Origin: a virus
Lineage: Duplodnaviria; Caudoviricetes
DNA length: 64,000 nt
IMG/VR virus record: IMGVR_UViG_3300020577_002429
Location: 1 to 64,000 of that record
Strand: one strand, 5' to 3'
Each line of letters starts with the position of its first letter. The first letter of the stretch is position 1. The position numbers were made by a program, and so were the translations under genes. The notes beneath the pieces are model-generated. The model saw nothing but the letters and a program-made list of their open reading frames with translations, did not search any database and was not told the origin of the DNA. Shown here piece after piece: positions 10,922 through 15,321 of the stretch.

Positions 10922-11137
10922 ATGAAAAGAAGTAAATACATTATTGTAGGATTCTGTGACAGCCCTAGTTGTTCACCTACAGGACGATATGTACTCAAGA
11001 CTAGGTTAGGTGGTACAACATGTCCATCATGCGGCTATAGCCTTTATATGCAACGACAATTAAGAACAACCGATAACCATTACGAGGTGCAAATTGAAAA
11101 AAGATCAGACAGCAAACCCAATAGTTACGCTATATGA
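10922..11137 (+). CDS. small zinc-ribbon-like protein
   Basis: CxxxxC and CPSC pairs. Confidence 0.6.
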   Translation: MKRSKYIIVGFCDSPSCSPTGRYVLKTRLGGTTCPSCGYSLYMQRQLRTTDNHYEVQIEKRSDSKPNSYAI

Positions 11138-11315
11138 CATTATCACTAGAGATGGTTATATCAGTCAATCCCAATACTTAGCTCTATGGCCTGAGAGTTC
11201 TAACAGAGAAGACGCATTACTTGAATTGTATAAAATGGAACAAGAAGGACTTATCTATGGCAATTATGGTGCCAAAGATATTACTTTCTATTTAGCTGAA
11301 ATTGTAAGACATTAG
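11094..11315 (+). CDS. hypothetical protein
   Basis: 73 aa ORF, TTG start. Confidence 0.55.
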   Translation: MKKDQTANPIVTLYDIITRDGYISQSQYLALWPESSNREDALLELYKMEQEGLIYGNYGAKDITFYLAEIVRH

Positions 11316-11359
11316 TCTTAAGGTTCTTTCAGGATTTCAATTAGTAAAACAAAGCCAGA
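11315..11359 (+). repeat. bipartite intergenic repeat copy 4
   Basis: GTCTTAAGG 11315-11323, AGCCAGA 11353-11359. Confidence 0.8.
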
Positions 11360-11587
11360 TTTTATGAATTACATGAGGAGTGCATATGAAAGAGATACTA
11401 CATATCGTCAACTAACTAACATATTAAAACAAACTATAATATCCTGTATTATTGTAAAAAGGCACACCTACGGCTATAGCTATTGTATAGTAGAAGCTTT
11501 CAGTTTCTCAGTTACTTCGCTGGTATTTAGATTTCCAGCATTTCATTGAGAACCTATAGTCTCGATTAGCAAAAAAAAGGAAAGGTA

Positions 11588-12288
11588 ATGAACTACCTAT
11601 ATTCAGAGCATCCAAATAGTAAGATAGACTACGAAATGGCTAAATTCATATGCGAGAACTATGGAAAAATGAGTTCAGGAGAACTTTCGAAAAAACTAGG
11701 TGTAACCAGTACTACAATACTTAATTGTTTAAAACTTAATAAAATACCGGTAGTAAAAGCTGGTCATTTTCTATTAATAATACTTACTCACCAAGAAAAC
11801 TTCCGGATATAGACATACTAGTTAAGTTGTATTTTGAAGATAAGTTGAGTCTGCGACAGATAGCTCAAAGATACAAAGTGGACCAGGTATCAGTAGGTGA
11901 TACTTTTAGAAAGCACAAAATAAAACTTAGATCACTTTCATTGGCTAGCTTCAGAGGAAAGAGAAACGGTAATAGGTATAAGAATAGAGATGGGTATATC
12001 ATGGTACACATAAACAAGTCAAGTCCAGATAACAAGTTTGTAACAAACGGAAGACACAATTCTATATCGGAGCATAGGTTGGTTATGTCTAGGTATCTCA
12101 ATCGTAAATTAGAAAAACATGAAAATGTTCATCATGTTAATGGTGTAAGGGATGATAATAGAATCGAAAATCTAGAGCTATGGTCAACCTTTCAACCTAA
12201 AGGACAACGAGTTCGTGATAAAGTCAGGTGGGCGGAGATGATATTAAGTAAGTATAAGAAAGATATAAAATCCGGAAAGATCAAATAA
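11588..12288 (+). pseudogene. HNH homing endonuclease with N-terminal HTH repeats, split by a frameshift
   Basis: C-terminal EHRLVM...EHENVHHVNGVRDDNRIENLELW. The N-terminal ORF (11588-11812) and C-terminal frame overlap over 11743-11812; one extra T at 11767-11770 fuses them. Confidence 0.75.
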
Positions 12289-12299
12289 AAAACATAGTG

Positions 12300-12618
12300 A
12301 TCCTTATATATCCCATCTATCTGATGAGCTATAAAGATAACCTTGACTTCATTGGTTAACTTAACAAAGGCATCTAGTCCGTGATACCTTGTAACTTATG
12401 CTTTACTCCAGAGGCTCCCTTTCTACGCTATAAAGCGGATACAGAAGTGTGTTCCAAGCTAGGATGTTACACCACGATTAGCCATTTCTTAGAAGTCTTT
12501 GGATTGTGCAGAATTTCAAATATCCCAACTGCATCAAGACTAATATTGCCTCTAATCGTATCCCCCAAGTTCAGCCAGTGTTTAGCGACCGGTACGCATT
12601 ACATCTTGGGATTTAGAA
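12300..12618 (-). ncRNA. candidate structured ncRNA (~320 nt), unclassified
   Basis: Leftward promoter at 12625-12653; multiple long stems whose G-U pairs favour the - strand. Confidence 0.55.
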
Positions 12619-12624
12619 TGACTC

Positions 12625-12690
12625 AATATGACACATAATAACTAATTTGTCAAGATAATTATTGACAATGGTAAAATAAGGTAGTAGAAT
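12625..12690. promoter_or_regulatory. divergent sigma70-type promoter pair
   Basis: - strand TTGACA (12653-12648)-17-CATATT with TG extension; + strand TTGACA (12662)-17-TAGAAT. Confidence 0.65.
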
Positions 12691-12706
12691 AAGATTAGGA
12701 GATATT

Positions 12707-13006
12707 ATGAAGTTTAAAAAGGGTGATTTTATCGTAAATAAGAGATTTCCATTTAAATTCTATCAATTTATTTGTAGCGGAGTAAAGCATGCACCGACCA
12801 CATATCATGTTTATCCTGAGTACGCAGTAACGGTAATAAGAGATGATTTTAAGTTTGATTTATATTTCACCCATAAAAAGGACTTTACTGATATGTTTAA
12901 AAGAGCAAAAGATGATGATATTATTGAATATCTAAGCTTTCATGTAAGAAGTCATATAGTAAATAGCTTGACGGATAAATTTAAAGCTAGTATAAAGGAT
13001 ATATGA
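12707..13006 (+). CDS. hypothetical protein
   Basis: 99 aa ORF with AGGAG RBS. Confidence 0.7.
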   Translation: MKFKKGDFIVNKRFPFKFYQFICSGVKHAPTTYHVYPEYAVTVIRDDFKFDLYFTHKKDFTDMFKRAKDDDIIEYLSFHVRSHIVNSLTDKFKASIKDI

Positions 13007-13221
13007 ATATAAATGACATAACATCACAACCCACAACATTTACCTCAGCATCGCTACAATATGCTCAGGTTGACAGTAATGATAACATAGTGCATATTTA
13101 TACTACTAGACAATCTGCTAGCTATATGGTATCATTGTCTGGTGGGTATGTTTTAGAAGTGTTTACAATAAAGAATAAGATACTAGCAATAGGAGATGTA
13201 CATGAAAACCGACTATGGTGA
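13003..13221 (+). CDS. hypothetical protein
   Basis: 72 aa, ATGA overlap. Confidence 0.65.
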   Translation: MNINDITSQPTTFTSASLQYAQVDSNDNIVHIYTTRQSASYMVSLSGGYVLEVFTIKNKILAIGDVHENRLW

Positions 13222-14566: not shown

Positions 14567-15046
14567 ATGAAATATTTATTAATCTTATTATTATCTACAT
14601 CAACATTAGCTAACGATTGTAGTGAGTCAGTAGAGAAACAGTCAAACGAAGTGACTTATGCTGTAAATAAAGATATGCCTAAACATCTAAAAGGTGCTAC
14701 TATTACAATCACACTATCTGATGGTAGTACATCTACAGTATCCGCAGATAAGTTCATGGTCGTACCGAGAAAGCAGTATACAGTTGTCGGAGAGTCTACT
14801 AGCACAATTAAGACAATGACTTGTAAAGCAAAGACTAAAAAGAATAATCTGATGGTAGATGCTAGAAAAGACATCACAGGACTTGATACTGAGACAAACG
14901 GATCTCAAGCTAAAGTCATTGCTAAAAAAGCTTTAGTACCAGGAATTAATTACTACCGACGTGAAGTACTGGATAGCAATATTGGATTAGGTGCTGGAAT
15001 TGACGCTAATACCACATTCAAGGTTTTAGTGGGTTTTGATTTTTAA
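14567..15046 (+). CDS. exported protein, possible outer-membrane beta protein
   Basis: N-terminal signal peptide MKYLLILLLSTSTLA; alternating C-terminal strand ending ...VLVGFDF. Confidence 0.65.
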   Translation: MKYLLILLLSTSTLANDCSESVEKQSNEVTYAVNKDMPKHLKGATITITLSDGSTSTVSADKFMVVPRKQYTVVGESTSTIKTMTCKAKTKKNNLMVDARKDITGLDTETNGSQAKVIAKKALVPGINYYRREVLDSNIGLGAGIDANTTFKVLVGFDF

Positions 15047-15053
15047 TTGTTTT

Positions 15054-15321
15054 GAGATAGCGATGTTGAAAGCTGTGGCGACTAAATCCTTGAAATAAAG
15101 GGCAATTCGCAAGAGCCACTGGAGAAACATAACTAGGATGCAGTTTGTCGAAAATTAACGGAAGGGGCTTGAAGTAATTCAAGAATACGTGAGCCTTCTG
15201 GGAGCCAGTTAGTTGGTAGTACTTTAGTGTACAACCCTATGCGAATTTGAAATCCACCTAAGGGGACTAAATGCTACCTTGGGGATACAGACAATAGCTA
15301 GAGTAGCGTCTAGCCTATCTC
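15054..15321 (+). ncRNA. candidate structured ncRNA (~268 nt), unclassified
   Basis: Closing helix GAGATAG/CTATCTC followed by T7; internal stems capped by GCAA and GTAA (GNRA) loops. Confidence 0.6.

Follow-up and report, generated by a model that had tools for sequence, protein, structure and literature searches.

The gap of 418 bp between the HNH ORF at 11827-12288 and the 99-aa ORF at 12707-13006 belongs to a genuine and novel noncoding RNA locus of phages. We draw this conclusion from the relatives of the phage, in which this promoter, unchanged in position and orientation, drives RNAs whose folds are supported by many compensatory base changes. Three types of RNA body, named A, B and C, were found behind this promoter, and the one carried here is type A. 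Its transcription, most likely into a discrete RNA made early, is plausible on the sequence signals described below, and for its action as a functional, trans-acting structured RNA we regard the chances as even. We infer the fold as drawn, and any function. The original prediction of a novel structured RNA transcribed against the early genes therefore holds in one half: the unit has a conserved promoter, is free of ORFs, is bounded by a terminator and has no Rfam match. The other half did not hold up, in that the fold is at chance level and the body is not alignable to types B and C.

The window, that is the whole stretch of 64,000 nucleotides that was analysed, corresponds to the initial 64 kb of an IMG/VR virus record that measures 81,942 bp and has an estimated completeness of 98%. 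All genes from position 1 to about 34 kb run rightward, and the leftward unit at 12287-12653 is the only one found within these 34 kb. The coordinates of the features are collected in Table 1.

Table 1. Features of the RNA locus in the window and in related contigs (coordinates refer to the window where no contig is named).
Feature	Sequence	Coordinates	Strand	Remarks
Leftward promoter	window	12625-12653	-	10/12 matches; TGTGT ahead of the -10 box (extended -10)
Rightward early promoter, TTGACA-17-TAGAAT	window	12662-12690	+	11/12 matches
Predicted transcribed body, type A	window	12287-12620	-	about 330 nt, noncoding; ORF, GC and Rfam tests
5′ domain, UCCCAAG/CUUGGGG (12611-12605 with 12569-12563)	window	12563-12611	-	encloses a CCGG/CUGG hairpin whose loop holds UAAACA; local z -0.35
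Middle domain, ACGAUUAG/CUAAUCGU (12559-12552 with 12481-12474)	window	12474-12559	-	encloses GUCUU/AAGAC and UGCAG/CUGCA; in MFE and centroid folds; z -1.0
Hairpin CGCU-UUAU-AGCG	window	12437-12426	-	
Hairpin AAGGUAUC/GAUGCCUU	window	12367-12390	-	internal U-G wobble; -9.8 kcal/mol, z -2.4
Helix UAACC/GGUUA	window		-	present as listed in the original prediction
Intrinsic-terminator-like 3′ end	window	12283-12345	-	hairpin 12345-12293, then U6AUUU 12292-12283
Homing endonuclease gene, split	window	11588-12288	+	HTH ORF 11588-11812 (74 aa) and HNH ORF 11827-12288 (153 aa); PHROG and Pfam HNH_3; weak HTH matches
Conserved structured module, 3′ half of type C in the nearest relatives	window	11460-11575	-	about 110 nt; part of the type C consensus fold
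Type A body	window; one soil metagenome (near-identical copy)			about 330 nt
Type B body	G001, L012, L013, L031 and identical copies			355-377 nt
Type C body	L027, L029, L181 (L028: cut-off copy of the same body)			about 275 nt
Shuffled neighbour genes	L006 (G001)	10992-11552, 11995-12591		
Shuffled neighbour genes	L012	2131-2697		
Copies of a short intergenic element	L028	545-606, 2784-2831, 3710-3769, 4116-4192		

Promoters, body and 3′ end of the leftward unit

The proposed leftward promoter, TTGACA-17-CATATT, which is of the sigma-70 type, was found in its place, with the -35 box at 12653-12648 and the -10 box at 12630-12625, and the rightward promoter said to stand back to back with it was likewise found. 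The -35 boxes of the two promoters are 8 bp apart. The rightward promoter drives the 99-aa ORF that starts at 12707 and the genes beyond it. As for the leftward one, transcription is predicted to start at about 12619 ± 3 and to end within the U-run at 12292-12287. The 3′ hairpin that precedes this U-run has an energy of -16.5 kcal/mol on the minus strand (z -2.7, 1/200 shuffles), whereas on the plus strand, where an A-run would precede the stem, the value is just -8.3. This U-run extends into the stop codon of the HNH gene, which is convergent with the RNA. The hairpin and the U-run thus delimit a unit of about 330 nt, extending from about 12619 to about 12288. By prediction, this unit has the parts of a stand-alone small RNA gene, being free of ORFs and having a promoter of its own and, on the strand of that promoter, an intrinsic terminator.

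The region had been described as poor in ORFs, and our analysis agrees, since the longest open stretch on the minus strand is 43 codons from stop to stop and no usable ORF exists on this strand. The GC content of the body is 0.39-0.44, higher than in most ORF-free gaps of at least 150 nt in the genome (range 0.27-0.42), and in GC skew it is the reverse of the flanking plus-strand genes. A second ORF-free gap with raised GC (0.42), in this case with a G excess on the plus strand, lies at 15047-15278 of the window.

The only sizeable frame in the region is a plus-strand ORF of 85 aa that starts with GTG (12381-12638). The stretch could accordingly be read on the plus strand, either as coding for this ORF, which is open, or as the 3′ untranslated tail of the endonuclease mRNA, no plus-strand terminator having been found after the HNH gene. 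We consider this reading hardly credible. The GTG is not preceded by a Shine-Dalgarno sequence, and the 85-aa ORF has no PHROG or Pfam match; among 1.84 billion representatives it gave two matches, both of them tandem-repeat junk proteins, which were discarded. Moreover, the GC skew is opposite to that of all the neighbouring plus-strand genes, and the wobble pairs and the terminator function on the minus strand only.

Close to the predicted 5′ end of the RNA, the minus strand contains a start-stop mini-ORF (AUG UAA, 12604-12599), which is not conserved in L012, L013 and L031. Possible antisense targets of the type A RNA in its own genome amounted to matches of chance length (12-14 nt). Among the sequencing runs listed for the window sequence, none holds RNA. 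A 262-nt contig covering 12418-12677 was obtained from the X18 run, which is labelled RNA-Seq and flagged as "probably DNA"; since this contig continues beyond the predicted start for 57 nt, reaching into the promoters, it is uninformative on a transcript.

Relatives of the locus and covariation in types B and C

The locus has no match in the GenBank phage collection, searched in both near and distant modes, and a look-up in IMG/VR through the neighbouring proteins gave no relatives. When the DNA polymerase and the capsid protein were used, IMG/VR yielded a single relative, G001 (IMGVR_UViG_3300046330_000229; 82,265 bp), which has direct terminal repeats and a DNA polymerase 62% identical to that of the window phage. 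The same genome was the only relevant IMG/VR match to the promoter-pair pattern. The syntenic interval of G001, located by whole-genome tblastn, is an ORF-free gap of about 440 bp with a rise in GC, a reversed GC skew and back-to-back promoters, as in the window; raised GC and a G excess on the minus strand are common to both elements. Additional relatives of the RNA locus were sought by exact patterns and protein-anchored look-ups, with two conserved neighbours as anchors for fetching contigs, namely the 159-aa protein at 14567-15046 and the 73-aa protein at 11094-11315. On the basis of nhmmer and of the alignments, the locus sorts into the three body types of Table 1, all behind homologous promoters. 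More distant relatives (L015-L018) have no comparable element at the locus.

Conservation of the promoter pair extends to eight related phage contigs, with up to 100% identity, while the bodies differ. The rightward promoter is conserved in G001, L012, L013, L031, L027, L029 and L181. The leftward promoter, together with the region of the predicted transcription start, matches those of type C contigs at 100% over 65 nt (L029) and at 91% over 88 nt (L027), and is conserved in type B contigs too. In L012 (1307-1345, minus strand) the position of the leftward promoter is shifted upstream by about 37 nt, and the RNA has an additional 5′ hairpin (CUCU.../...AGAG). The promoter-pair pattern was also searched for in species genomes, where it gave 58 generic extended -10 promoters, none of them with a related RNA; many are in Clostridia MAGs and several lie ahead of tRNA genes. 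At most, these matches hint weakly at a host whose promoters are Firmicutes-like.

Gene content near the RNA locus is shuffled among the relatives: genes for a Mom-like protein, a ClpP-family protease, an AAA protein and a DUF7336 protein switch sides, which places the locus in a recombination-prone accessory region. An intergenic element of 50-80 nt near 11315 (window 11300-11391) recurs several times in the early region of L028.

Synteny and promoter alignment put the window and type B at the same locus, with the same orientation and promoter pair. RNAalifold, applied to four type B sequences of two clades, which are also the sequences from which the structure was derived, gave 73 pairs, 27 of them compensatory. 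After one helix was added (78 pairs), 94.5% of the cells pair. Both sides have changed in 28 of the 78 pairs, as compared to 9.5 ± 2.4 in column shuffles (0/500) and to 1-4 in slid controls, in which the partners were moved by 1-3 columns. The helix formed by columns 126-132 and 152-158 covaries even within the three close sequences. When the strands were compared, the scores were -67.4 for the minus strand (11 broken cells) and -49.1 for the plus strand (23 broken cells). Type B is therefore a real structured RNA, strongly backed by covariation, with the minus strand favoured.

Type C behaves similarly. Between L027 and L029 there are 51 differing positions, which are depleted where columns pair: 12 lie in the 132 paired columns and 39 in the 146 other columns. 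The changes that affect pairs comprise four compensatory ones and four that, on the minus strand, are compatible with wobble pairing; no pair is broken. With L181 added (n = 3), eight pairs are compensatory. The structure is closed by a 19-bp long-range helix with invariant G-U pairs and, together with the wobble-type changes, these invariant pairs favour the minus strand. The conclusion that type C is a structured RNA too is thus supported.

These two types weigh on two further explanations of the locus. According to the first, the leftward promoter fires into rightward transcription, and so insulates the downstream operon or provides antisense to the endonuclease gene, and the sequence of the body matters little. 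This is consistent with a unit that is convergent with the upstream plus-strand genes and whose U-run reaches into the HNH stop codon, with a search that found no plus-strand terminator in the interval from the HNH gene to the rightward promoter, and with a body that is replaceable among close relatives. We nevertheless hold it to be improbable, considering that types B and C have clearly been selected for base pairing, which pure interference does not need, and that the terminator should end most transcripts before they become antisense to HNH.

According to the second, the element is a replication origin acting at the DNA level, which transcription from the divergent promoters would activate or prime (cf. 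ColE1 RNA II, the T7 primary origin and T4 oriF). Strong divergent promoters do flank an ORF-free stretch, and the phage encodes a family A DNA polymerase. However, no iterons or other repeat families were found, the transcript has a terminator of its own, the body is not conserved, and what the relatives show is selection on RNA pairing, G-U pairs included, and not on a DNA motif. An origin is in our opinion very unlikely. The reading of the locus as one of structured noncoding RNAs is the one we retain.

The type A fold and its comparison with known RNAs

The helices listed in the original prediction were checked base by base on the minus strand, and every one of them is there; most appear in the MFE or the centroid fold. 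The statement that G-U wobbles mark the minus strand was also borne out, because the wobble pairs work only on that strand: the U-G pair of the AAGGUAUC/GAUGCCUU hairpin, for instance, becomes a C-A mismatch when read on the plus strand. As evidence for a structured RNA, though, the helices failed. The MFE of the whole type A RNA had z values of -0.20 and -0.52 in two runs against dinucleotide shuffles, and stems of at least 7 bp, with G-U pairs allowed, numbered 37 as compared to 29.4 ± 5.1 in the shuffles; a perfect 8-bp helix is expected, by our estimate, about once per 340 nt. Since they occur at chance level, the particular helices carry no evidential weight. A stretch of 26 nt in the 5′ domain resembles the sequence at the equivalent position in G001, though not significantly. 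The elements of the body that do exceed chance are the 3′ hairpin with its U6AUUU and the AAGGUAUC hairpin; also above chance at this unit are the conservation of the promoter pair in relatives and the GC content with its reversed skew.

The folding z of type A is the weakest of all the alleles. The energy test is likewise weak for type B (z from -0.95 to -2.3), which is validated by covariation, so that for type A such tests have to be taken as uninformative and not as negative. The lesson is that helices picked by eye, together with folding energy, fail to separate type A from shuffled sequence.

A lack of resemblance to tRNA, tmRNA, RNase P and group I introns, first judged by eye, was corroborated by Rfam and ARAGORN searches, which came back equally empty. 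No match at the gathering threshold was obtained in the whole window (Rfam 15, 4227 models); a permissive scan of 11400-13100 with E up to 10 returned noise only, and the loci of six relatives gave no match with E up to 1. ARAGORN found no tRNA or tmRNA gene in the 64 kb. No description of the RNA of this locus was found in the literature.

Type A could not be related to the other bodies either. In Smith-Waterman comparisons with types B and C it scored at shuffle level (z from -0.7 to 1.6), as compared to a z of 30 for the control pair G001 and L013, and nhmmer gave no alignment of it to either type. The type B covariance models, R1 for domains 1-2 and R2 for domain 3, gave no match at 12283-12620 nor in type C, even when run with filters off. 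By eye, a type B hairpin that is followed by GAGUAAC looked similar to a hairpin of the type C module, a likeness that neither R2 nor Smith-Waterman supported. A pattern scan of metagenomes with the type B motif gave four chance matches, all negative by nhmmer. As far as these sequence comparisons can detect, the three bodies have no relation to one another. The search for homologues and covariation proposed with the original prediction thus succeeded in part: compensatory pairs were found in types B and C, and no diverged homologue of type A was found. Taken together, the elements of types B and C are like that of the window in locus, orientation, homologous back-to-back promoters, absence of ORFs and size (275-377 nt), and differ from it in that their folds are backed by covariation, whereas the window body has no similarity to them that sequence comparison or covariance models could detect.

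Among known systems, the pRNA of the phi29 family (RF00044), about 174 nt long and found in protein-primed podoviruses of roughly 20 kb, is a phage RNA transcribed from an early leftward host-type promoter, and it is kept while its sequence diverges almost completely. The locus described here is similar in both respects; it differs in that there is no Rfam match, the window phage measures 82 kb and G001 has direct terminal repeats. Group I introns of phages carry HNH homing endonucleases, as in the case of I-HmuI of SPO1, and here too an HNH gene adjoins a potentially structured RNA of about 330 nt, the pair moving as one mosaic block. However, no model of the group I catalytic core (P3-P9) or of any intron matched on either strand, and the RNA interrupts no gene: it lies on the strand opposite to the endonuclease, has its own promoter and terminator, and is not flanked by minus-strand exons.

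GOLLD and ROOL are large, ornate phage-associated RNAs of 580-800 nt; they are structured noncoding RNAs of no known function that phages carry, as the present element would be, but Rfam models of them exist and none matches here. The omega-RNA of HEARO/IscB, located upstream of the 400-500-aa IscB on the same strand, is a structured RNA next to an HNH-domain ORF, as type A may be. In our case the neighbour is a phage HNH_3 endonuclease split into ORFs of 153 aa (HNH) and 74 aa (HTH), on the opposite strand, and there is no Rfam match.

A mosaic block with a homing endonuclease gene

What the original prediction left out is that type A is part of a 1.05-kb mosaic block, which carries a homing endonuclease gene and replaces part of the relatives' RNA gene. 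Homology to the nearest relatives ends at 11571 and restarts at 12622, just past the -10 box. Between these points L027 and L029 have about 160 nt, corresponding to the 5′ part of type C, and the window has 1,050 nt, with a ribosome-binding site, the HTH ORF, the HNH ORF (which begins with TTG) and type A. The endonuclease gene, in this same inserted block, is convergent with the type A RNA. In one soil metagenome, the block 11456-12686 is present in near-identical form between different flanks, which indicates that it moves as a unit. There, one extra A after 11775 (AA to AAA) fuses the HTH and HNH ORFs into about 234 aa; the frameshift in the window could be due to decay, to an assembly error or to a programmed shift. 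It follows that the block is a free-standing homing endonuclease cassette with type A travelling along. No type A was seen beside any of 80 loci with relatives of the HNH protein, and no relatives of the 74-aa HTH ORF were found.

The window has no complete type C. Of this RNA only the 3′ module at 11460-11575 survives, the 5′ 160 nt having been replaced and, with them, the promoter and the 5′ strand of the closing helix having been lost. Parts of the module match L027 and L029 at 100% identity, and a comparison of these two with the window shows four compensatory pairs in a row. It is probably an orphaned remnant, given that the inserted block separates it from the promoter. The 61-aa ORF at 11364-11549 overlaps the module and is for this reason probably spurious. 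In its stead, L027 carries a hydrophobic ORF of 33 aa, the end of which lies immediately ahead of the module.

That the inserted block destroyed the type C RNA of the relatives speaks against a functional type A, although the loss fits a dispensable locus as well as replacement by an equivalent. It may be, then, that the RNA gene was simply wrecked by the endonuclease cassette, and that 12289-12620 is hitchhiking filler, either donor flank or a decayed allele, transcribed and without function. This would agree with the orphaning of the 3′ module, including one strand of the 19-bp helix, by the block at 11572-12621, with the folding z of type A, with its homologues being limited to one near-identical copy, and with an endonuclease gene that is itself frameshifted in the window. 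We regard this explanation as unlikely, yet clearly less so than interference or an origin, because a strong, strand-specific terminator lies exactly at the end of the ORF-free stretch, the GC content is above that of most comparable gaps, and the block has been retained, with little change, in a second phage background as well.

If type A is instead a functional RNA, the following model can be proposed. The region 12287-12653 on the minus strand would be a small, self-contained noncoding RNA gene of a lytic phage of about 82 kb. The primary sigma factor of the host would read its strong extended -10 promoter, which is arranged back to back with the one that serves the next block of genes rightward, and leftward transcription would proceed for about 330 nt and stop at the hairpin and U-run that abut the convergent HNH stop codon. 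Across the phage clade, the promoter-pair locus would hold structured RNAs of at least three mutually unalignable body types, and type A entered with the homing endonuclease gene as one recombination block, in place of the 5′ part of type C. Early in infection, the folded RNA might act in trans, its most likely mode of action being to bind a host or phage protein or to serve as a decoy for one. A role in host takeover or counter-defence, which we infer from context, would explain the fast turnover of the body under a fixed promoter. In this respect the locus may be compared to accessory, arms-race loci.

More tentatively, and with no better prospects in our judgement than the filler, the locus could be an "RNA cassette slot", in which a fixed early promoter pair accepts at least three unrelated structured RNAs as interchangeable alleles, swapped through recombination at the transcription start; here the swap would have been driven by an endonuclease that targets the resident RNA gene. 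If this were true, the slot would be the RNA counterpart of the protein anti-defence and host-takeover hotspots in the early regions of phages.

To our knowledge, few structured RNAs encoded by phages are known, and hardly any with a function. The locus yields two RNA families that are absent from Rfam and have compensatory changes in their support, and the window adds a candidate for a third allele; the three bodies stand behind one conserved host-type promoter in uncultured phages of freshwater, wastewater and soil. The replacement of an RNA together with a homing endonuclease gene amounts to a natural swap experiment, which could reveal whether the RNAs are functionally equivalent and also whether RNA genes, outside introns, serve endonucleases as homing sites.
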